From Thermococcus sp. JdFR-02 (lineage in GTDB: Archaea; Methanobacteriota_B; Thermococci; Thermococcales; Thermococcaceae): a stretch of 64,000 nt of DNA. The position numbers were made by a program, and so were the translations under genes. Below the pieces are notes generated by a model, which saw only the letters and a program-made list of their open reading frames with translations, ran no database searches and had not been told where the DNA came from. The DNA lies in assembly GCA_002009975.1 (NCBI GenBank), contig MTLP01000022.1, positions 48,207 through 112,206 of the forward strand. Reading direction: 5' to 3'. This document shows, in pieces, positions 1-9,423 of the stretch (its first letter is position 1; each line of letters opens with the position of its first letter).

Positions 1-41
1 ATCGACAATTGCCTTAATGTTTAAAAATAGAGAAAGTAACA

Positions 42-899
42 TCACTTAGATTTTTTGCATAGCATAGAACCTTGAGGAACTTTCAATTCTCTTGCAATCG
101 GTTTACATTTGGCTTTGAGTAGATAAAAGATCTTATCCTCCTTTATTTCGTTAAGGGTTTCAAAATTCCCCTGTCCTTTTGCAATTATTACATCTGCCCT
201 TTCAAAGAGTTCTTTAAATTCCTTACTAACCCTATCAAATGGAGCTCCCACAATCCTTGTTCCTGTTGAGATTATCTCAGCAATTTCATCAAATTTGGCA
301 TTTTTTAAATCCTCAATCGTTGCATCATTAATTATTGCCCCCTCTTTCCCAGCAACATAAATATCCAAATGCGGAAACTCTTCCTTGAGTTTTTCTAAAA
401 AGAGCTTATCAAAGTAAATTTCACCACAATTATCAGTCAAATAAAGAAGAACTTTGCTTTTTCCCAGCTTTTCAAAGAGTTCATCGCTCTCATCTACATA
501 AAGCTCTTCGCTGAGCATTGTTAAGATGTCTTCCTCTATCCTTTTTAGCTCATAGCCAACGGCAAAATCTATTACGTTTCCAGCTATTGCCAACTTTAGG
601 GCTGTTTTCAAATCTATGGAAATTTTTCTCTTTAAATCCTCAACAACCTTCTCTGCTAACCTATTTGACACTTCCTTATACTTTCTAAAGGGATCATCCT
701 CATCGAGGAACTCATAAAGCTCAAGAAATATCTCACTTCCAGTTGTCGCTGGTATTGAATCTTCATTAAAGTACTTTTCAACCAGCTTTGCTGTAAAAAT
801 CATAGCTTCCTTTCTTTTTATTAAATCATCAGTGCTGAACTCCACTATCTTTTGAGCTTGATTTATCATGCATGAGAGGCATTCATAATGCACTTTCAT
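42..899 (-). CDS. DUF89/ARMT1-like damage-control phosphatase
   Basis: N-terminal CxxC, AIAGNVIDF, DNCGE, NDAT and KGQGNFE motifs typical of DUF89. Confidence 0.9.
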   Translation of the reverse strand: MKVHYECLSCMINQAQKIVEFSTDDLIKRKEAMIFTAKLVEKYFNEDSIPATTGSEIFLELYEFLDEDDPFRKYKEVSNRLAEKVVEDLKRKISIDLKTALKLAIAGNVIDFAVGYELKRIEEDILTMLSEELYVDESDELFEKLGKSKVLLYLTDNCGEIYFDKLFLEKLKEEFPHLDIYVAGKEGAIINDATIEDLKNAKFDEIAEIISTGTRIVGAPFDRVSKEFKELFERADVIIAKGQGNFETLNEIKEDKIFYLLKAKCKPIARELKVPQGSMLCKKSK

Positions 900-974
900 T
901 TTATCACCCTACAATTAATGCCCCAAAGATCATATAAAAGTGCCTATTCTTAGGAAAAGTTTTAAATGTATAAA

Positions 975-992
975 ACCGAACATTTGTTCGGT
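975..992. promoter_or_regulatory. Perfect inverted repeat ACCGAACA-TT-TGTTCGGT, candidate operator
   Basis: Lies between a TTTAAA box (~960-966) and the MFS ATG at 1000. Confidence 0.55.
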
Positions 993-999
993 GGTGCGT

Positions 1000-2283
1000 A
1001 TGGAGACCATTGAGAAGGCTAAATTCGGAAAGTTTCACTATAATCTGTTAGCAGTTTTGGGAACAATCTGGGCGTTTATAGCAATAAATACTATAGCTGC
1101 AAGTTTTTTAATTCCTCTACTAAAAAAAGAACCTGCGTTTCAAGGGAGCTTGGCTAAATTAGGTTCCCTCGGTTCAGCTGCTTTATTTGGAATGCTTTTT
1201 GGAGCTTGGCTTTTTGGAAGCTTAGCCGATTATATAGGAAGAAAAAAGAGCTTAGCGATTGCAGTGACAACTTTTGGGCTTGGCTCAATAATAAGTGCCT
1301 TTTCTCAAAGCTTAGATCAGCTTATAGCTTTGCGTTTTGTAGTTGGTTTAGGCTTAGGTGGTTCATTGCCAGTGGCAAGTTCATATTTTGCCGAGTTCAT
1401 GCCTCAACGAATCAGAGGAGCTATGATATCAATATTGGAAAGTTTCTGGGCGATAGGAACGATAATTATTGGAATAGTCGCTTTGGCAATCGGAACGAGC
1501 TGGAGAAACCTTTTATTCTTTGGCGGTACAGTATTGCTAATCTTACCTATACTATTAGCCCTTCCAGAGTCTCCAAGGTTTTTGCTTGTTAAGGGTAGAG
1601 TTGAAGAAGCCGAAAGAATTATAGAAAAGATTTTTGGAGTCAAAGTAAAGCTCAAAAAGCTTGAAGAGAAGCATGAAAAAGTTACAATAGCGGAACTTTG
1701 GGAAAAATTTGCAAAAACAACATTAATGCTGACAGTTGCATGGTTCAGCATTGCTTTTGCATACTACGGCTTTTTCATCTGGCTACCAAAGTTCCTAGCT
1801 TCAACTCTAAGCATTACCGTCTTTAAGAGCTTTCAATATTTCATTATAACAGCTATAGCTCAACTTCCCGGTTATTACAGTGCAGCCTATTTAATTGAAA
1901 AGATTGGAAGGAAAAAGACATTGTCAAGTTATCTCCTAATCTCAGGTTTAGCTGGTATTATGTTCTATAAATTTGCAAGTTCAGGCAATGTAAATTTAAT
2001 AATGCTCAGTGCGATACTCTTCAGCTTTTTCAACTTAGGTGCTTGGGGAGCTATTTACGCCTACACACCAGAGCTATATCCGACTAACGTTAGGGGTACT
2101 GGAACAGGATGGGCTGGAGCAATGGCAAGAATAGGAGGTGGTTTAGCTCCAATAATAGCTGGAAAATTAATGGAAAGTTACACCGTTGGAGTTGCTGTTC
2201 TCGTTATTGCAATAGTCTCAATAGTTGGTGCAGTGGATGTTTTGCTCTTAGGTGAAGAGACAAAAGGAAAAGCCTTAGCTTGA
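1000..2283 (+). CDS. MFS transporter (SV2/NiaP-like organic solute permease)
   Basis: ~12 hydrophobic segments; ADYIGRK, PESPRFL and PELYPT..RG motifs; start moved to ATG 1000 after GGTG. Confidence 0.85.
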   Translation: METIEKAKFGKFHYNLLAVLGTIWAFIAINTIAASFLIPLLKKEPAFQGSLAKLGSLGSAALFGMLFGAWLFGSLADYIGRKKSLAIAVTTFGLGSIISAFSQSLDQLIALRFVVGLGLGGSLPVASSYFAEFMPQRIRGAMISILESFWAIGTIIIGIVALAIGTSWRNLLFFGGTVLLILPILLALPESPRFLLVKGRVEEAERIIEKIFGVKVKLKKLEEKHEKVTIAELWEKFAKTTLMLTVAWFSIAFAYYGFFIWLPKFLASTLSITVFKSFQYFIITAIAQLPGYYSAAYLIEKIGRKKTLSSYLLISGLAGIMFYKFASSGNVNLIMLSAILFSFFNLGAWGAIYAYTPELYPTNVRGTGTGWAGAMARIGGGLAPIIAGKLMESYTVGVAVLVIAIVSIVGAVDVLLLGEETKGKALA

Positions 2284-2344
2284 TTTTTTATTTTTATCGA
2301 AAAATAGTTTAAGGAAGAGTTGCAATATTCTTTGGGCGATATTT

Positions 2345-2923
2345 ATGGCCGAAGAAAAGTTGCCAAAAGGAATTTTAGAAAATCTATTCCCAAATGAGGA
2401 AGTTCTCTACACCGTGAAAAAGAAGTTTAGCCTTGAAGCAAAGCCCAAATGGCTTGTTGTGACAAATATGCGCATCCTATATATTGACGAGAAGCTCTTA
2501 GGAAGATACGATCTAATAGCGGTTCCCTATGAAAAACTTGAGTTTGTGTATTTTAAAGCTACCAAAGTCTCATCAGAGTTCGTTATTAAAAAAGAAGATG
2601 GAGAAGAGCTTTCTCTTTCAAGACTTGACAAAAATGAAGCTATGAAAGCAATAGAAGCAGTTAGAGATGCTTTAAATGCGATAGCAGTTGAACCAGTGAC
2701 AATCCAAAGAAAGAAGAAATTGATGAGTGAGGAATGGATTATTCATAAACCAAAAGAAACTGTAAGCAGGGCAATAAGAGTACAGCGCTCAGTTCCAACT
2801 CTTGTTAAAGAAAAGGAGGACCCAATTGAAAAGCTAAAAAAGCTTAAGGAGCTTTATGACATGGGCATTATAACTCAGGAAGAATACGAAGAAAAAAGAA
2901 GAAAACTTCTTGAAAAAATATAG
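2345..2923 (+). CDS. Bacterial PH-domain protein with C-terminal SHOCT domain
   Basis: LVVTNMRILY (bPH-like) and LKKLKELYDMGIITQEEYEEKRRKLL (SHOCT). Confidence 0.8.
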   Translation: MAEEKLPKGILENLFPNEEVLYTVKKKFSLEAKPKWLVVTNMRILYIDEKLLGRYDLIAVPYEKLEFVYFKATKVSSEFVIKKEDGEELSLSRLDKNEAMKAIEAVRDALNAIAVEPVTIQRKKKLMSEEWIIHKPKETVSRAIRVQRSVPTLVKEKEDPIEKLKKLKELYDMGIITQEEYEEKRRKLLEKI

Positions 2924-2941
2924 CGCCTCTTCATTACATCT

Positions 2942-3142
2942 TTACCATATCCAAAGTTTAGGGTCTGCTTCCTCCCTGCCTTGAAGGGTGAGGAGTCCTG
3001 TTGGAGGCTTATAGTCAGCCGCTAAGGAGTAACCCAAAAGAAAACCCCAGAGAATACTAAAAGGGACAATATAAGGAACATCACTCTTATCTGGCTTTTC
3101 ATAGAGGGTCACCTTCTCATTAATGTTATTATTTGTCTGCAC
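2942..3142 (-). pseudogene. Truncated small membrane protein running into the IS-end remnant
   Basis: One hydrophobic helix, then the C-terminal codons are supplied by the IS-like sequence. Confidence 0.4.
2965..2998 (-). mobile_element. Decayed IS200/IS605 (tnpB-type) right-end remnant
   Basis: Minus strand GGACTCCTCACCCTTCAAGGCAGGGAGGAAGCAG resembles the recalled tnpB 3'-end pattern ...GCCCTTYAGGGCGGGGAGGAGGTCAG; no transposase nearby. Confidence 0.5.
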
Positions 3143-3143
3143 T

Positions 3144-3515
3144 TCACAACCTCAACGAAGTAGGCATAGTAAAATCCTGATAGAGAACTATTAGAGAGAG
3201 CACCAACATGAACAAAGCAAATCCAGCTATCACTACCCGTTTAATGTAAGATGCATCTTTGAGAAATTTTAAATTCTCCAATATAACAATCGAGACAAAT
3301 ACTGCAAATGTCATTGCATCTGAAGCCATTAGATTCAATGGGATTCTCCGATTAATCTTGAGCATAATAACTAAAAGTAGGTATGGAAATGTAACAATTC
3401 CCGCTTTTTGGAAGCTCTCGAGTGAGATATCCCCAAACTTTTTGTAGTTAAGCAATATGAATGAGAACAAAGAAATAAAGAGGACAGGATAATACGTTGG
3501 GTTCATTAAGCTCAC
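3144..3515 (-). CDS. Small 4-TM membrane protein, candidate immunity protein for precursor 2
   Basis: Hydrophobic 123 aa; starts 3 nt after the stop of precursor 2. Confidence 0.6.
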   Translation of the reverse strand: MSLMNPTYYPVLFISLFSFILLNYKKFGDISLESFQKAGIVTFPYLLLVIMLKINRRIPLNLMASDAMTFAVFVSIVILENLKFLKDASYIKRVVIAGFALFMLVLSLIVLYQDFTMPTSLRL

Positions 3516-3518
3516 CTC

Positions 3519-3875
3519 TCATGCTGTGAGTCCACCACCGATTGTTGCAAGGGCTCCTCCGAATACTGCACCTAAACCACCACTAGCTATAGCAATGCCA
3601 ACTCCCCCAACAACAAGTGAAACACCAACTCCAATCATGGAATTTGCATCCGATAACTCCAGAGCATATCGTCCAGCCCTTGCATGGTAGTATTCTGCCA
3701 TAGTTTTGTCTCCTCTAAGAAGAGCTCTTTCGTATTAATCCATATAGTAATTGTACATCTTTTTAGCAAAATGCCTTTTAATTGCTCCTATCTCAGCTTT
3801 TTCAGCAACTGCTCCATCAATTACCATTCCCACAGCCATCAACACCAGTCCCAACACCAAAGCTTTTCTCCACAT
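3519..3875 (-). pseudogene. Bacteriocin-like precursor 2 interrupted by in-frame TAA at codon 47 (3735-3737)
   Basis: ATG 3875 reads MWRKALVLGLVLMAVGMVIDGAV...MD*YERALLRGDKTMAEYY... in frame with the 3519-3701 glycine-zipper ORF. Confidence 0.75.
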
Positions 3876-3880
3876 TTTAA

Positions 3881-4444
3881 TCACCCCAAACTTTCGGCAA
3901 TTTTAAGTGTTATTGTACTCTCAATCAGAGCAGCAATGAAGATTAAAATCATCGAGATAGCAACAAGCTTGAAGAATTCCTTAGCATCCTCCTCACTAAT
4001 CATCTCCTCCTTCTTGCCCAAAGCAAATCTTAAGGCTTCGTAAGGAATCTTGAAGCCAGCTGCTCCGGCTATAATTAAAGCGGGGATTTCGAAAATGCCG
4101 TGGGGGAAGATTAGGAGAAAGAATGTTTTAACTTCGCCTAAGCTTAAGGAAGACTGGAATAATACTCCCAAGTTAATTCCATTCATGATTAAGTTTAGAA
4201 AAGTCAAACCCCCAAAAGTCAAAACACCGCCAAATGAAAGGAGAAGAATAACTTTGAAATTGTTTGCGAAGATATAAGAAAAACTTAGCTTTTCTTCACT
4301 AAACTCTCTTTCTAAAAATGGGGCAATATTGACATTTTCATGTTCATGAATTTTATAATGGGTTGAGAGTGAAATCCCAAGGAGAAACCCAATAAAAAAT
4401 AGTAGAGATGAAAGGAAAATAGGCCTGTTGAGCTTCTCCTTCAA
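3881..4444 (-). CDS. SpoIIM / DUF95 membrane protein
   Basis: IFANN, NG..LG and PHGIFEIPA signature. Confidence 0.9.
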   Translation of the reverse strand: MKEKLNRPIFLSSLLFFIGFLLGISLSTHYKIHEHENVNIAPFLEREFSEEKLSFSYIFANNFKVILLLSFGGVLTFGGLTFLNLIMNGINLGVLFQSSLSLGEVKTFFLLIFPHGIFEIPALIIAGAAGFKIPYEALRFALGKKEEMISEEDAKEFFKLVAISMILIFIAALIESTITLKIAESLG

Positions 4445-4659
4445 TTTTGAGCCTCCTTTGCCATTGGTAGGAGGAATTCTATGGCATATCCAAGCTCTGC
4501 GTATATTATTGTAAAGGCTAGCATTGCCCCAAGGAAGTCTGTCACTGATTTAATGGGAAGGAAGTCGTTAAAGAGTAACGCTATGCTCACAGTTGTTCCA
4601 AAAGCCATTATGAACCCAACGACAAGTAAGCCAATGTACTTTCTAATAGATCCCTTCAT
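4441..4659 (-). CDS. 72-aa 2-TM protein, candidate immunity protein for precursor 1
   Basis: ATG 4659 after GGGGG; MKGSIRKYIGLLVVGF...; stop overlaps the SpoIIM start. Confidence 0.65.
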   Translation of the reverse strand: MKGSIRKYIGLLVVGFIMAFGTTVSIALLFNDFLPIKSVTDFLGAMLAFTIIYAELGYAIEFLLPMAKEAQN

Positions 4660-4670
4660 ATAACGTCCCC

Positions 4671-4937
4671 CTAGGCCCACACCGCAAGACCAACATAGGG
4701 TATTGCCTTTGCTACAGTTTTTAAACCAAACTTTAGAGCAAATTTTGTGGCTACTGCAGCGCTTCCTAATGCTGCAGTGCCTGCCTTTACCCCACCCATA
4801 GCTTGTCGCCAATCTCCTGTTTTGTGCCACCTATAAATCCCATATGCTATATCAAATTTCCCTTTTTCAACTGCTCCACCCACTACCATTCCTACAGTCA
4901 TCAACACTAGCCCTAACACTAAAGCCTTCCTCCACAT
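4671..4937 (-). CDS. Bacteriocin-like precursor 1 (88 aa; circular-bacteriocin-like)
   Basis: GGTGG site then MWRKALVLGLVLMTVGMVVGGAV leader; cationic Gly/Ala-rich core ending GLAVWA; near DUF95. Confidence 0.7.
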   Translation of the reverse strand: MWRKALVLGLVLMTVGMVVGGAVEKGKFDIAYGIYRWHKTGDWRQAMGGVKAGTAALGSAAVATKFALKFGLKTVAKAIPYVGLAVWA

Positions 4938-5317
4938 TTGAAAACCACCAATCGAGTTCGTGTTCTTAATACTATTTAAAGTTTTCTTTATAATTCCATA
5001 ATTACTATTGACATTTTTATGATGATTGAACAGAATATATAACAATCACAAATAGTAAGTTGTGGTTCCCATTAAGTCATTGAAAATTTGTAAGTACGTG
5101 AGTTTTTGAGCAAAGCAATGCAATGGAAGATCAAAAATCAGATTGCTAATCTGACTGAAAGAAAGTTTTGCAAGTACTTGTCCGATTTCCACAGGAGAAT
5201 TGATCTGACTCTCAATCTAAATAGATTGTACAACTTCACAGGGGGTAGAAACTAAAGTTCATATCATTAACCTAAGGGTTATAAACTTAATCTACATCTC
5301 TTATTTTGGTGGTGAAA

Positions 5318-6670
5318 GTGGCTTTAGAAAATTTGGGAAAAGCCTTAAATAACGCCCTAAAAAAGCTTGCTCGTGCTAGAACTGTTGATGAAGCTGTAAT
5401 AAAAGAAGTTGTGAGAGATATTCAAAGAGCTTTAATCATGAGTGATGTTAATGTTAGATTAGTCCTTGAATTGACGAAAAAAATCGAAAAGAGAGCGTTA
5501 GAAGAAAAATTACCCCCTGGAATTTCAAGAAAGGAGCACATAATCAAAATAGTTTATGAAGAGCTGACAAACTTCTTGGGAAAAGAAGCCAAGCCAATTG
5601 AGATTAGAGGAAAACCTACTGTTCTCTTAATGGTTGGTATTCAAGGTTCAGGTAAAACCACAAGTGTTGGAAAATTGGCGAGATATCTGCAAAAGAGGGG
5701 TTATAGAGTGGGATTAGTTTGTGCAGATACTTGGAGACCCGGAGCATATCATCAACTAAAGCAACTCGCTGAACCCTTTGGAATTGAAGTTTTCGGGAAT
5801 CCAGAGGAAAAAGATGCGGTGAAATTAGCTAAAGAAGGTGTAGACTATTTTAGGCAAAAAGGAGTTGATGTGATTATCGTTGATTCTGCTGGACGACATA
5901 AAGAGGAGAAGGGACTAATTGAAGAGATGAAACAGATAAGCAGTGCAATAAAACCCCATGAAGTTATTTTAGTAATTGATGGAACAATCGGGCAGCAAGC
6001 ATATAACCAAGCCTTAGCCTTTAAAGAAGCGACTCCAATCGGTTCAATAATAGTAACAAAGCTCGATGGGAGTGCAAAGGGAGGAGGAGCATTATCTGCA
6101 GTTGTTGCCACGGGAGCACCAATTAAATTTATTGGCGTTGGTGAGAAAATTGATGATTTAGAACCCTTTGATCCAAAGCGCTTTGTCTCAAGATTGCTTG
6201 GTTTAGGAGATATTCAAGGACTCTTGGAAAAGTTTGAAGAAGCGAGCAAAGAAGTAAAAATTGAACAGGATATTGAGAAATTCATACGTGGGAAGTTTAA
6301 CTTGAGAGATATGTATACTCAATTAGAAGCTATGCAAAAGATGGGACCTCTAAAGCAAATATTACAGATGATACCCGGGCTAGGGTATGAATTGCCAGAT
6401 GATATGGTTAGGATGAGTGAAGAAAGGCTTAAAAAGTTTAAAGTCATTATGGACTCAATGACGAAAGAGGAACTTGAGAATCCTTCCATAATCAATTACT
6501 CAAGAATTAAAAGAATTGCAAGAGGTTCTGGGACTTCTGTTAGAGATGTGAGGGAGCTATTAGAGCAATATAATCAGATGAAAAAATTCTTTAAGAGTAT
6601 GAATAGGAGAAAATTGGCAAAGATGGCAAGAAAATTAGGTGGAATGAATTTTGGAGGGTTTGGAATATGA
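5318..6670 (+). CDS. srp54: Signal recognition particle protein SRP54
   Basis: [26 protein letters not shown] and M-domain RIARGSG; probable GTG start at 5318. Confidence 0.97.
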
Positions 6671-6906
6671 TGGAGGCATTTGTTTTGGTTATAGTAAAAC
6701 CCGGAAATGAGGAGAAAGTGTATAACAAATTAAAGGAATGTCCCAAAGTTAAAGAGATATACAGGGTCTACGGAGAATATGACATAGTATTAAGGGTGGA
6801 AGTTGATAACATCAAGGCTTTAGATGAGTTTCATGACACCATTTTGAGAAAGATTAGAGAGATTGAAATGACTGAAACGCTAATAGCAAGTTCATATCGA
6901 GTTTAG
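6667..6906 (+). CDS. Stand-alone Lrp/AsnC ligand-binding (RAM) domain protein
   Basis: VYGEYDIV motif, 79 aa, no HTH. Confidence 0.85.
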
Positions 6907-6916
6907 AGGTGGGGAG

Positions 6917-7429
6917 ATGAAAAAACTAGTCGCGATAATTCATTTAGACACTTTAAAAGTTGATTACGACCCCTCTTTTAAATTTAGATGTTTGGAAAAC
7001 TGTGCAAAGTGTTGTGCTGAACTCGATATACCCTTAAGAGACGAGGATATAATGAGGATCGAAGATCTCGGCTTCAATGCTTGGGAATTTGTAGACTACA
7101 ACAAGATGTTCTATAGAGGAGACAAATTCATTGGCTATGCTTTGAAAAAGAGACCTTTCGATGGTTTATGTCCCTTTTTAGACGAAAACAGCAGATGCAA
7201 GATATATCCGAGCAGACCTTTAGCTTGCAAGCTCTATCCTTTCATGCTGGTAAAACAAGGAAACATAATTGAGGTATATGTCAAAGATCCCAACTGTCCG
7301 GGAGTAGGGGATAGAGATGGAAAACCAGTAAATTTTGAATTTGTTATGGAGTACTTTGGGGAAGTTATTGAAGAATATAGAAGGAAATTAAACTATACTC
7401 GAGTTCCAAAAGCTGCTGGAACGCCATGA
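6917..7429 (+). CDS. YkgJ-family cysteine-cluster protein
   Basis: CxxxCxxCC...CPFL...CKIY..RP..CKLYPF. Confidence 0.88.
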   Translation: MKKLVAIIHLDTLKVDYDPSFKFRCLENCAKCCAELDIPLRDEDIMRIEDLGFNAWEFVDYNKMFYRGDKFIGYALKKRPFDGLCPFLDENSRCKIYPSRPLACKLYPFMLVKQGNIIEVYVKDPNCPGVGDRDGKPVNFEFVMEYFGEVIEEYRRKLNYTRVPKAAGTP

Positions 7430-7528
7430 ATTATAAACGCACAACATTGTATTGCGATGAGATTTTGATATAACCGAAACCTATTTATACATTTTTTTGT
7501 CAATCATGAATCCAAGAGAGGTGATAAT

Positions 7529-8242
7529 ATGAGTCAAATAGAAGCAGTTAAAGAAAAGCTTAGAGTAGTTAGGATTCTTAAGCTCTTAAAAAAGACGTAT
7601 ACGTACGATGATCTGTCAAAAATAACTGGTTTGCCAATAACTGTGCTTAATCGTTACGTTAGAGGAAAAGTCCTACCAAGCACAGATAGAGCAAAAGAGC
7701 TTTTGCAAATGCTTTCACCATACATAAATATTGAAGAAGAAGTTAGGAGAAGAATAGAGTTCGATGAGCACGGACTCTTTGACAATATGAAAATACTAAG
7801 CGATACCGCTTTAATGAGCCTAATTGCTGAAGAGATAGCTTCAAAATACATGGGAAAGGATGTTTCAAAGGTTTTAACAGCAGCAACAGATGGAATTCCT
7901 TTAGCGGTTCATATAGCAGACGAATTAAACGTTGATGTAGTTTATGCTAAAAAGAAAAAAGAAGTTGGAGTAGAGAAGTTTTATGAAGTCAACTATGTTC
8001 CAAGTGCTTCTGGAAGTGTCATGACGCTTTATCTACCCCAATGGGCATTGAAGAAGGGTGATAATGTTCTCATAGTTGATGATGTTATAAGGAGCGGTGA
8101 AACTCAAAGAGCATTAATTGACATGTGCAAACAAGCTGGAGCTGTTCCAATTGGGATGTTTTTCCTAATTAGTGTTGGAGACTTTGTCGATAAGCTCAGG
8201 GAGGAGTATAATATTCCCGTAGATGTGCTGGTGAGATTATGA
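7529..8242 (+). CDS. HTH + phosphoribosyltransferase domain protein (PurR-like regulator)
   Basis: N-terminal HTH (TYDDLSKITGLPITVLNRY) and PRPP loop VLIVDDVIRSGET. Confidence 0.85.
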   Translation: MSQIEAVKEKLRVVRILKLLKKTYTYDDLSKITGLPITVLNRYVRGKVLPSTDRAKELLQMLSPYINIEEEVRRRIEFDEHGLFDNMKILSDTALMSLIAEEIASKYMGKDVSKVLTAATDGIPLAVHIADELNVDVVYAKKKKEVGVEKFYEVNYVPSASGSVMTLYLPQWALKKGDNVLIVDDVIRSGETQRALIDMCKQAGAVPIGMFFLISVGDFVDKLREEYNIPVDVLVRL

Positions 8243-9423
8243 TAAATACTGAAATAAGAATGCTCAATAGCATACTAAGAGGAGGGATTAGAGAAGGGAA
8301 CAGCATAATGTTTTCCGGTTCTTTTAATGATGATCACAGGATTTTGATGCATCAATTTATTTTTGCCCTTCTCAAACAAGATTACAAAGTATTGCTCGTA
8401 GAGTTCAAGCAGAGCCCAAAGAGTCTGCTAAAATGGCTTGAAGAGTATAAAATCGATTACGATAAGTTCATAGAAAAAGAGCAGCTCAAGATTATAGATG
8501 GACACACAAATTTATATGCAAAAACACAGGTGGTTGGAAAAGATGTACTTTCAAACCCAATGGATTTGCCCATAACAACGGCTATCCTGAGGAGAGAATT
8601 AACTTCAAAGGGATACAACTTTTTAGTTATAGATGATCTCTCAATTCTTTACGCCGTCCTTCCAAGCAAAGATGAGTTCTTTAAAATAACGGTTAGATTC
8701 ATAAACTCCCTTCTCTTAGAAGGAATTGTAACCGTAACCTCATTCATTGAAAAGCTTGCATCTCCCACAGAGTTCTCTCTCCTAACTTTGCCTTTTGGAT
8801 ACGTGATCTCCATTGAAGATGATAAGGTGAGGATAAAGAAAGCTCCACATCCAATCGGACCCGTGGATTACTTCAAATACATAAAGACAGATGAAGGAAT
8901 AAAATCCTATGAAGAGCACTATGAAAGCTTGGAGAAGATAAAGGAATCTCTCTATTTAGACGATGAGGGAATTTTATGGAGCGGAAACCAAAGGGTTCAA
9001 GTAATAGACGAGGAGAGCGAGGCAAAGTTAATAGAAAGTCTATTCGAGTATTACGGCAGTCAATCTGCCAAGAAATTCATGTACTTCTGGGGAAGGGAGG
9101 AGTTTTTAGGGCGTGGAAAGCTGTATTTGCAGATTTATAGAAGCTTGGATAAAGTTTTGAAAAGAATAATTCACGATACAAAGGTGACTGGTGGGGGAAC
9201 ACTTGAAATAGGACACATGGAGGAAGATATAATCATAATAAGAGCTAAAAACCTATTCCCAAGGATTCCAAACTTTGGAGAACAAATTCACCTCCATGAT
9301 GTTGGAGGATTAACACAAATAATAGAAGAAGTTATTGGTGGAAAATGGGAAGGGGATGAAGTTAAGTGTGAAGCAAAAGGTGACAGTTATTGTGAATTCA
9401 TTATAAAGAGGGTTAGCAAATGA
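8239..9423 (+). CDS. Degenerate KaiC/RecA-like ATPase fused to a V4R domain
   Basis: LRGGIREG start, Walker B-like LVIDD, C-terminal EVKCEAKGDSYCEF; Walker A lacks GKT. Confidence 0.7.
   Translation: MINTEIRMLNSILRGGIREGNSIMFSGSFNDDHRILMHQFIFALLKQDYKVLLVEFKQSPKSLLKWLEEYKIDYDKFIEKEQLKIIDGHTNLYAKTQVVGKDVLSNPMDLPITTAILRRELTSKGYNFLVIDDLSILYAVLPSKDEFFKITVRFINSLLLEGIVTVTSFIEKLASPTEFSLLTLPFGYVISIEDDKVRIKKAPHPIGPVDYFKYIKTDEGIKSYEEHYESLEKIKESLYLDDEGILWSGNQRVQVIDEESEAKLIESLFEYYGSQSAKKFMYFWGREEFLGRGKLYLQIYRSLDKVLKRIIHDTKVTGGGTLEIGHMEEDIIIIRAKNLFPRIPNFGEQIHLHDVGGLTQIIEEVIGGKWEGDEVKCEAKGDSYCEFIIKRVSK

Follow-up and report, generated by a model that had tools for sequence, protein, structure and literature searches.

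A polymorphic leader/core peptide family with dedicated DUF95 genes in Thermococcales, and its candidate role as a bacteriocin-like toxin/immunity system

The window analysed in this study is a stretch of 64,000 nucleotides (nt) from Thermococcus sp. JdFR-02 (contig MTLP01000022.1, positions 48,207 to 112,206 of the forward strand). Between its positions 4989 and 2942, a compact, operon-like row of cassette genes lies on the minus strand with small gaps, and it contains a tight operon of a short peptide gene (precursor 1), a gene for a two-helix protein of 72 amino acids (aa), and a gene for a SpoIIM/DUF95 protein (PF01944). We found strong support for a polymorphic family of leader/core peptides that come with cognate partners and dedicated DUF95 genes. 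On the sequences compared here, this polymorphic cassette is widespread across Thermococcales, and the window locus has two copies of it, of which one is intact and the other decayed. As to its role, we favour a polymorphic, Sec-leader, bacteriocin-like (archaeocin) toxin/immunity system in which DUF95 serves maturation or self-protection, and we would give this reading a probability of roughly 0.55. Head-to-tail cyclisation of the peptides may be suggested by analogy, and we consider it rather unlikely.

The peptide family, its DUF95 genes and its partners

The peptides of the family are 73-110 aa long and share an N-terminal segment that is constant at the protein level. Its consensus across the family is MWRKAL(A/V)LGLVLMA(I/L)G(V/M)VVGGAVE, and it is followed by at least 15 unrelated Gly/Ala-rich cores. 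These cores have 46-83 residues, 18-48% Gly+Ala, and a net charge from -3 to +8. Nearly all of the 22 tabulated cores end in hydrophobic residues without a charged tail, and the clear exception is the core of locus L020. The initial annotation of this DNA had proposed one conserved leader on interchangeable cores, and the family comparison supports this proposal.

The conservation of the leader was also compared at the codon level. Over the first 20 codons of 25 copies, the mean amino-acid identity is 79%, and positions with the same residue share the codon in only 57% of cases (for instance, Leu6 is written with five codons and Gly9 with four). These sequences indicate that the similarity of the leaders is not due to chance and that the constraint acts at the protein level. 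Meanwhile, the three cassette DUF95 proteins of the window genome are 85-89% identical in their C-terminal halves and 42-62% identical in their N-terminal halves, and the codons of identical residues in the C-terminal halves match in only 51-69% of cases. Recent gene conversion as the source of the conserved leader and of the conserved DUF95 half was therefore rejected, because synonymous sites have diverged in both.

Among 99 Thermococcales genomes, the peptide profile has matches in 25 (E <= 0.01) and strong matches in 21 (E <= 8e-8), with cores that vary widely, as had been anticipated from the window alone. In the four genomes with weak matches, the match falls on the ordinary signal peptide of a larger protein (340-380 aa in three of them and a 321-aa frame in the fourth). 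A profile search against 1.84 billion representative proteins returned only 24 clusters (E <= 0.001), all of 56-110 aa. Of these, 22 open with MW(R/K)… or MRRR…, and the exceptions are P0032 (MLRKTL…) and P0022, whose sequence starts within the leader. A type IV pilin-like (class III) signal was considered for the MWRKA start and rejected, as the peptides are short and all-helical with hydrophobic ends and there are no pilus genes nearby.

The leader peptides share their genomes with extra DUF95 copies. PF01944 is present in 97 of the 99 Thermococcales genomes, and a housekeeping copy was found in all 80 genomes that are at least 90% complete. At least two PF01944 matches occur in 23 genomes, which include 20 of the 21 strong-leader genomes and 3 of the 78 others; these counts come from related genomes, which are not independent samples, and thus overstate the statistical strength. 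In the one strong-leader genome without a second match, the leader lies on a contig of 396 nt. Four PF01944 matches occur in the window genome itself (44 contigs, 2.36 Mb), and three of these belong to cassettes beside leader-bearing open reading frames (ORFs). The fourth has unrelated genes as neighbours, shares 34% identity with the window copy, and is presumably the housekeeping copy.

The association is also seen in the gene order. Among 31 distinct leader ORFs (at least 60 aa), 26 are followed by a DUF95 ORF on the same strand within 1.8 kb. Locus ends account for four of the remaining five: the ORF of L014 and the second ones of L016 and L037 lie near the end of the fetched stretch, and an open-ended DUF95 piece is found at the locus end in both L021 and L014. 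The fifth leader ORF is itself downstream of DUF95. DUF95 is the only conserved non-peptide component of the cassettes. In 45 DUF95 sequences, E175 and, within the PHGxFEIP stretch, P114, G116, and E119 never vary, and H115 is nearly invariant. The AlphaFold2 model of the window DUF95 has six helices and a mean predicted local distance difference test score (pLDDT) of 84.4. Its fold search gave a best E of 1.1 with Foldseek against PDB and a best Z of 7.0 with VIA-align against 48,161 chains, which was a generic helical match; this absence of an informative relative does not show that the fold is new. A complex prediction for DUF95 and precursor 1 ended in 'no answer' with a score of 0.00 and is not evidence either way.

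The usual unit consists of a peptide gene, one to three small membrane genes, and a dedicated DUF95 paralogue. The type-A cores (e.g., that of precursor 1) are always followed by a 72-aa protein, the type-A' cores by a protein of ~82 aa, and the type-B cores by a protein of 65 aa. Cassette pairs that share the partner cluster also share the core cluster in 20 of 23 cases, and the other pairs do so in 28 of 302. Furthermore, a 31-residue motif of the type-B peptide recurs in its partner (65% identity, E 3e-11). The suggestion that each core has a cognate membrane partner is thus borne out by the co-variation of cores and partners, and it is not supported for precursor 2 of the window, whose supposed 120-aa partner has no relatives in the fetched loci.

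Tandem cassette arrays whose content differs at one orthologous site were confirmed. In three genomes of one genus, the same island, bounded by a gene for a 451-aa secreted protein and an epimerase gene, holds 2, 2, and 5-6 cassettes with different core types. Between the island cassettes (L040-L042), there are HEPN/nucleotidyltransferase-like gene pairs, named by eye, and AAA ATPase genes (420-430 aa), of which the one checked is PF13173 (AAA_14). This gene content suggests a general conflict-gene island. Some cassettes are decayed, with a broken peptide gene and with the partner and DUF95 genes retained in some of them. For example, at L043 (6408-7301), a 72-aa-type partner remains intact over most of its length (74% over residues 11-72), together with only a 41-aa DUF95 fragment. 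At L044 (6324-7537), the partner is 49% identical and a complete DUF95 remains. The leader genes of both loci are frameshifted or truncated. By analogy, these two decayed cassettes resemble the orphan immunity genes of bacteriocin loci.

In three loci (L002 of the window genome, L043, and L045), an ABC-2 permease gene stands divergently beside the first peptide gene. The permease of L002 is PF12679, and an ABC-ATPase-like gene, named by eye, is nearby in L002 and L045. Wherever an array faces a divergent ABC-2 gene (L016, L021, L023, L043, L045), a stretch of ~60 nt before the leader ATG is conserved. It reads in frame MKKTLSSI.NI.NMKN.E.. and, from its sequence, is probably a shared promoter or 5' region or an alternative longer start.

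The cassettes are not restricted to Thermococcales. In Archaeoglobales and Methanococcales, a cassette-type DUF95 is preceded by peptides with related, order-specific leaders, which end in ...MPAVGVGD in the former and in ...EPVALGD in the latter; variable Gly/Ala-rich cores come next. An Archaeoglobi peptide aligns with a Thermococcales peptide over 78 residues of leader and core with 51% identity (E 1e-8). In addition, the Methanococcales cassettes include a Yip1-domain gene (PF04893, E 6.7e-31) and a gene for a secreted protein of ~500 aa. Cassettes of the same kind were seen in these orders at L053-L056, L059-L071, L076, L082, and L089.

Some further loci carry foreign names. Cassettes of the Archaeoglobales or Thermococcales type lie on short contigs of metagenome-assembled genomes named as Desulfurellaceae, Cyclobacteriaceae, and Thermoplasmatota (L058, L074, L047), and these cases are probably binning errors rather than transfers. 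On the Methanomethylovorans hollandica megaplasmid pMETHO01 (L137 2658-4306), two near-identical, very hydrophobic peptides of 66 aa lie upstream of DUF95, with Yip1 and an ABC permease nearby. Judging by sequence, they may be a further, leader-poor variant of the system. An Aeribacillus composti contig (L093 3014-6998) has the order Yip1, 61-aa hydrophobic peptide, DUF95, 578-aa membrane protein, and ABC-ATPase-like gene, the last named by eye. This looks like a circular-bacteriocin cluster, and its 61-aa peptide has no Pfam match at E <= 0.01.

The locus in the window

The features of the window locus are listed in the table below. The coordinates bear out the one-strand gene order with minimal gaps that had been described for this DNA, and the translations confirm that both precursors open with MWRKALVLGLVLM(T/A)VGMV(V/I)(G/D)GAV. 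An archaeal promoter role is plausible for the element at 4973..4989, given its BRE-like (B recognition element) stretch and TTTAAATA.

Features of the peptide/DUF95 locus (positions in the window)
Feature	Positions	Strand	Description
Promoter-like element	4973..4989	-	Purine-rich BRE-like stretch, then TTTAAATA; 35 nt upstream of the precursor-1 ATG; read by eye
Shine-Dalgarno-like GGTGG	4949..4945	-	7 nt before the precursor-1 ATG
Precursor 1, 88 aa	4671..4937	-	Leader MWRKALVLGLVLMTVGMVVGGAVE and cationic Gly/Ala-rich core; hydrophobic C-terminal residues
Membrane protein, 72 aa	4441..4659	-	Two predicted helices; 11-nt gap after precursor 1; candidate immunity/partner protein
SpoIIM/DUF95, 187 aa	3881..4444	-	PF01944, E 1.9e-32, 112.9 bits (cut-off 26.9)
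Precursor 2, leader and first part, 46 aa	3735..3875	-	Opens 5 nt after the DUF95 stop
Glycine-rich frame, 60 aa	3519..3701	-	Ends GGGLTA; own ATG, AGAGGAG motif upstream
Multi-helix membrane protein, 120 aa	3144..3506	-	No family; possible precursor-2 partner by position alone
ORF, 66 aa	2942..3142	-	One hydrophobic stretch; uncertain as a gene; no family

Precursor 1 has a conserved leader of 24-27 residues and a core of 61-64 residues, where the cleavage site is inferred. The core is cationic (+6 net over residues 28-88) and ends in ...AIPYVGLAVWA, as first described. Precursor 1 has six database relatives, each of 88 aa, with 72-86% identity. The relatives of the 72-aa protein (68-92% identity) lie directly behind type-A cores in other genomes. 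The TTG start codon of DUF95 overlaps the stop of the upstream 72-aa gene, and the DUF95 gene reads as translationally coupled between this gene and precursor 2.

Precursor 2 is interrupted. An in-frame TAA at 3737..3735 follows after 46 residues (...YNYYMD), and the 46-aa leader part and the 60-aa glycine-rich frame lie in the same reading frame, separated by this stop. Read through with X at the stop, precursor 2 aligns over 93 residues with a 107-aa paralogue that is intact and lies elsewhere in the genome, on a different contig (locus L003; 45% identity, E 4e-22), and the X sits opposite a Leu. Thus, precursor 2 is a nonsense-interrupted copy, and it is probably inactive. Across the stop, contigs of two studies agree with the window without a mismatch (2900-4052 in one and 3334-4052 in the other), and no difference is listed at 3735-3737, with the qualification that the former contig may itself come from the source of the window. 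The 60-aa frame, for which there is no relative among the fetched loci, once formed the C-terminal core of precursor 2 and has been cut off from its leader, and it could be translated alone.

Three details of the initial annotation need revision in this region. It had treated precursor 2 as one ORF with a glycine zipper ending GGGLTA, which the TAA refutes. It had placed two precursors around one DUF95; the usual unit is a precursor, one or more small transmembrane genes, and DUF95, and the precursor-2 unit has no DUF95 gene of its own downstream, unlike the usual cassette. The supposed 123-aa protein is more likely of 120 aa, with an ATG start at 3506. Neither this protein nor the 66-aa ORF has a relative among the fetched loci or a Pfam or NCBIfam family, and none of the small proteins of the window reached the cut-off of a Pfam, NCBIfam, or PADLOC family.

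The flanks of the locus (window 42-2923 and 5306-6670) are ordinary, with an ARMT1-like damage-control phosphatase, an MFS transporter, a bacterial-PH + SHOCT protein, and an SRP54-like gene. Within 1.5 kb of the PH-SHOCT gene, nine relatives have neither SRP54, nor the MFS gene, nor a cassette. At window 4023-4081, in the conserved C-terminal half of DUF95, contigs from public runs break or branch, and the variant contigs carry 11-12 differences. This is consistent with three paralogous DUF95 copies confusing the assembly.

Proposed mechanism and competing readings

In the mechanism that we propose, the operon would be transcribed from the TATA-like element upstream of precursor 1, and the leader, serving as a Sec-type signal or an anchor, would bring the peptide into the membrane. 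The leader would be cut near the conserved G-G-A-V-E and the polar linker, leaving a core of about 61-66 residues. The cassette DUF95 would take part in maturation (leader removal, perhaps head-to-tail ligation) and/or in self-protection, and its conserved half might serve the conserved leader while its variable half serves the variable core or the partner. The small membrane protein would protect the producer, and the released hydrophobic/cationic peptide would damage the membranes of related archaea without the matching partner.

Several points weigh against a bacteriocin-like role. The leader consists of MWRK, 19 hydrophobic residues, and G-G-A, and its hydrophobic stretch is long enough for a permanent membrane anchor. 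The peptides could simply be two-helix membrane proteins, composed of the leader and a hydrophobic C-terminus. No family peptide scored above the cut-off of the bacteriocin families in Pfam and NCBIfam. A PDB profile search with the type-A alignment gave 0 matches at E <= 10, and the AlphaFold2 model of precursor 1 (14-sequence alignment) is one long helical string with a mean pLDDT of 54.6, too poor to judge a saposin-like fold. The 72-aa partner has a net charge of 0 by hand count and is not cationic, and the co-occurrence counts are softened by the relatedness of the genomes. In the available parts of the literature, a large multi-pass membrane protein and an ATP-binding protein are described as key components of circular-bacteriocin clusters. 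There is no multi-pass membrane protein of about 500-580 aa among the ORFs of window 1-9000, and the sole large membrane protein near the cassette is a 447-aa MFS transporter on the opposite strand (PF07690). The window cassette also has no ATP-binding protein or ABC transporter, and the absence of an ABC exporter that had been noted at the outset was confirmed for the same ORFs. In the inspected Thermococcales cassettes, no large membrane protein was found. Finally, the published interpretations differ from ours. The arCOG01996 cassettes of Makarova and co-workers (Extremophiles 2014, PMC4158269; Biochimie 2015, PMC5898192) are almost certainly the same genomic entity, and PF01944 here fits their kind by description, as an extra DUF95 paralogue in a cassette of 3-4 genes with small diverged membrane proteins. 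The 2014 paper, in its available passages, reads these cassettes as membrane-associated defence and the 2015 paper as membrane remodelling or vesicle formation. Neither paper bears out the remark of the initial annotation that similar archaeal loci had already been predicted.

The searches for circular-bacteriocin relatives were negative too. The circular families (PF09221, PF12173, PF16942 etc.) gave no match at E <= 1 for the window peptides, and no match for any of the 24 family members or 10 further peptides. A Bacillus precursor used as positive control matched PF09221 (E 2.3e-6), and the test is not very sensitive, because a 61-aa bacterial peptide in a canonical-looking cluster matched nothing. 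BLASTP of precursor 1 against two bacterial DUF95-cluster peptides gave no alignment with one of them and an E of 0.57 with the other. Two results from the ESM Atlas were not used: the precursor-1 core (residues 25-88) had a best score of 0.89 with unnamed clusters, and a 'putative cyclic bacteriocin' cluster at rank 30 scored 0.78, which is below the chance level for the tool.

Four other explanations were weighed. One of them overlaps the favoured reading: the peptides could be linear, Sec-dependent, class II-like bacteriocins, from which a general signal peptidase removes the leader, with DUF95 serving only in immunity or export. Small residues at -3 and -1 are the rule for signal-peptidase cleavage, and the G-G-A of the leader fits this rule. 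The leader also bears a weak likeness (E about 0.004) to the N-termini of larger proteins, namely the signal peptides of 340-380-aa secreted proteins in related genomes, and the window has neither a large membrane protein nor an ATPase. On the other hand, DUF95 is otherwise known from circular systems in the parts of the literature available, and the hydrophobic, uncharged ends of nearly all 22 tabulated cores (L020 excepted) are like those of circular precursors. We regard linear peptides as a possible outcome of some weight. The cassettes could also be a membrane-associated defence module against viruses or plasmids, in which a membrane complex senses or blocks infection, e.g., by collapsing the membrane potential, and the constant N-terminus is an anchor. 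This is the interpretation of arCOG01996 loci in the available part of the 2014 paper (PMC4158269). The variable islands, with their HEPN/nucleotidyltransferase-like pairs (by eye) and AAA_14 ATPases (one checked), would suit it, and hypervariability fits an arms race. It is unlikely in our view, since none of the 7 cluster proteins matched any of the 5027 PADLOC models (E <= 0.1), a scan of viral contigs with the peptide alignment found no relative, and toxin/immunity pairs more typically show a strictly conserved leader with a varying core and a small cognate partner.

Quite improbable is a structural membrane complex for remodelling or vesicle formation, in which DUF95, the small proteins, and Yip1 shape membranes and the variability of the peptides is neutral drift. 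It was proposed in the 2015 paper (PMC5898192), and both the universal housekeeping DUF95 (80 of 80 genomes at least 90% complete) and the Yip1-domain gene beside DUF95 in Methanococcales could be cited for it. Yip1 does not discriminate between the readings, because it is also found in an annotated bacterial circular-bacteriocin cluster. The cassettes occur in only about a fifth of the genomes, in 1-6 copies, and differ at one orthologous site; because of this patchy presence and this variation in copy number and content, accessory conflict genes fit better than housekeeping. In addition, neutral drift leaves unexplained why an invariant leader gives way abruptly to unrelated cores and why cores and partners co-vary. 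The least probable of the four, and very improbable in our opinion, is that the peptides serve in kin or self/non-self recognition or in signalling, as exported identity tags or pheromones that are read by the membrane partner without killing. Leader and variable-core peptides with a cognate membrane partner also typify peptide signalling and recognition systems, so that the architecture itself is shared, and some cores are neutral or anionic (net charge down to -3 in a range reaching +8), which is atypical for purely cationic membrane-active peptides. Against such a role, no sensor kinase or regulator gene was seen in the cassettes examined, and cores of 46-83 very hydrophobic residues are long for diffusible signals.

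Returning to the bacteriocin-like toxin/immunity system, its boldest form would make these peptides the first head-to-tail cyclised antimicrobial peptides of archaea. DUF95 alone would recognise and remove a universal leader and join the ends of many unrelated cores, in a minimal three-gene cassette without a large membrane protein or ATPase, in Thermococcales, Archaeoglobales, and Methanococcales. This extension, drawn by analogy, seems to us as doubtful as cyclisation itself. One paper, in its available part, proposes leader cleavage and circularisation by DUF95, and which protein removes the leader and closes the ring is described as an open question in bacteriocin biology in the passages available. 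A direct test of DUF95 function is feasible in tractable Thermococcales, because DUF95 is the sole conserved non-peptide component, one leader serves many cores, and the protein has a conserved half and a co-varying half. If cyclisation by DUF95 alone proved true, DUF95 would be a peptide cyclase of natural origin, thermostable and tolerant of different substrates, and the long search for the cyclase activity behind circular bacteriocins would lead to this protein. If the cassettes are toxin/immunity modules, they would form a widespread antagonism system of hydrothermal-vent archaea, with peptides that are necessarily stable at high temperature.

Comparison with known systems

In the available passages of the two arCOG01996 papers, the shared-leader/variable-core architecture of a 'small membrane protein' is not described, and the word 'bacteriocin' occurs 0 times in the text of the 2015 paper (PMC5898192). 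Among the papers covered by our literature searches, none connects these archaeal cassettes with bacteriocins. Three surveys of circular bacteriocins make no mention of archaea, two of them judged by term counts and one by a term search of its text. In the literature searched, we found no archaeocin for Thermococcales, Archaeoglobales, or Methanococcales, and the available part of the 2023 literature describes only halocins and sulfolobicins as archaeocins. The cassettes resemble these two in being archaeal and, on the favoured reading, would likewise encode ribosomally made antagonistic peptides or proteins, and they differ in lacking any sequence relation and in belonging to other lineages. 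To our knowledge, neither halocins nor sulfolobicins are associated with DUF95.

The polymorphic toxin/immunity systems and the double-glycine class II bacteriocin arrays are comparable in architecture. There, a conserved N-terminal delivery segment is joined to interchangeable toxic C-termini, a cognate immunity gene follows at once, and tandem arrays occur along with decayed toxin genes and orphan immunity genes; the leader, cores, candidate immunity partners, arrays, and decayed units of the archaeal cassettes would be the counterparts. However, the archaeal peptides are shorter than 110 aa and entirely membrane-type. Moreover, the cassettes lack a C39 peptidase-ABC exporter, and their leader is hydrophobic rather than of the double-glycine type.

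The closest comparison concerns the circular bacteriocins of Bacillota. In the papers available in part, DUF95/SpoIIM is treated as class-defining for their clusters, and the usual set consists of a precursor, a large membrane protein, DUF95, an ATP-binding protein, and a small two-helix immunity protein. The view of DUF95 as a hallmark of such clusters, taken in the initial annotation, is supported both by these papers and by a matching Bacillus plasmid protein. The window DUF95 matches plasmid-borne DUF95 genes of Bacillus, and in the case inspected, its residues 86-187 are 37.7% identical over 102 residues (E 2e-6) to the DUF95 of a cluster on Bacillus thuringiensis plasmid pYGD30. This cluster (uberolysin/carnocyclin family) is annotated in the order circular bacteriocin, Yip1, 572-aa membrane protein, ABC ATPase, and SpoIIM. 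PF09221 covers residues 39-99 of its 99-aa precursor, whose leader of ~35 residues is hydrophobic and signal-like. Because this annotated precursor has such a long hydrophobic leader, the Sec-like leader of the archaeal peptides, pointed out from the beginning, is no argument against a circular-bacteriocin kind.

There are clear differences. The window has no ~570-aa membrane protein and no ATP-binding protein, and each archaeal cassette carries its own DUF95. The archaeal leader is conserved from one unrelated core to the next, whereas the leaders of bacterial precursors differ in both length and sequence in the available descriptions. The archaeal cores fall outside any known bacteriocin family, their hosts are hyperthermophilic archaea, and their cyclisation is putative.

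The likenesses are found at several levels of the cassette. Both kinds have a small precursor (88-110 aa here and 99 aa in Bacillus) with a hydrophobic leader and a Gly/Ala-rich helical core. The archaeal core has no C-terminal extension, as is also described for circular precursors in the passages available. A small protein with two predicted helices, a candidate counterpart of the bacterial immunity protein, lies beside precursor 1, and the type-B partner resembles its own precursor, which recalls the precursor-like immunity candidate described, in the part available, for pumicyclin A. ABC transporter genes are present at some archaeal loci, and Yip1 belongs to the Methanococcales version. 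Furthermore, the archaeal DUF95 gene lies in the operon with the peptide gene and retains detectable sequence similarity to its bacterial counterpart.

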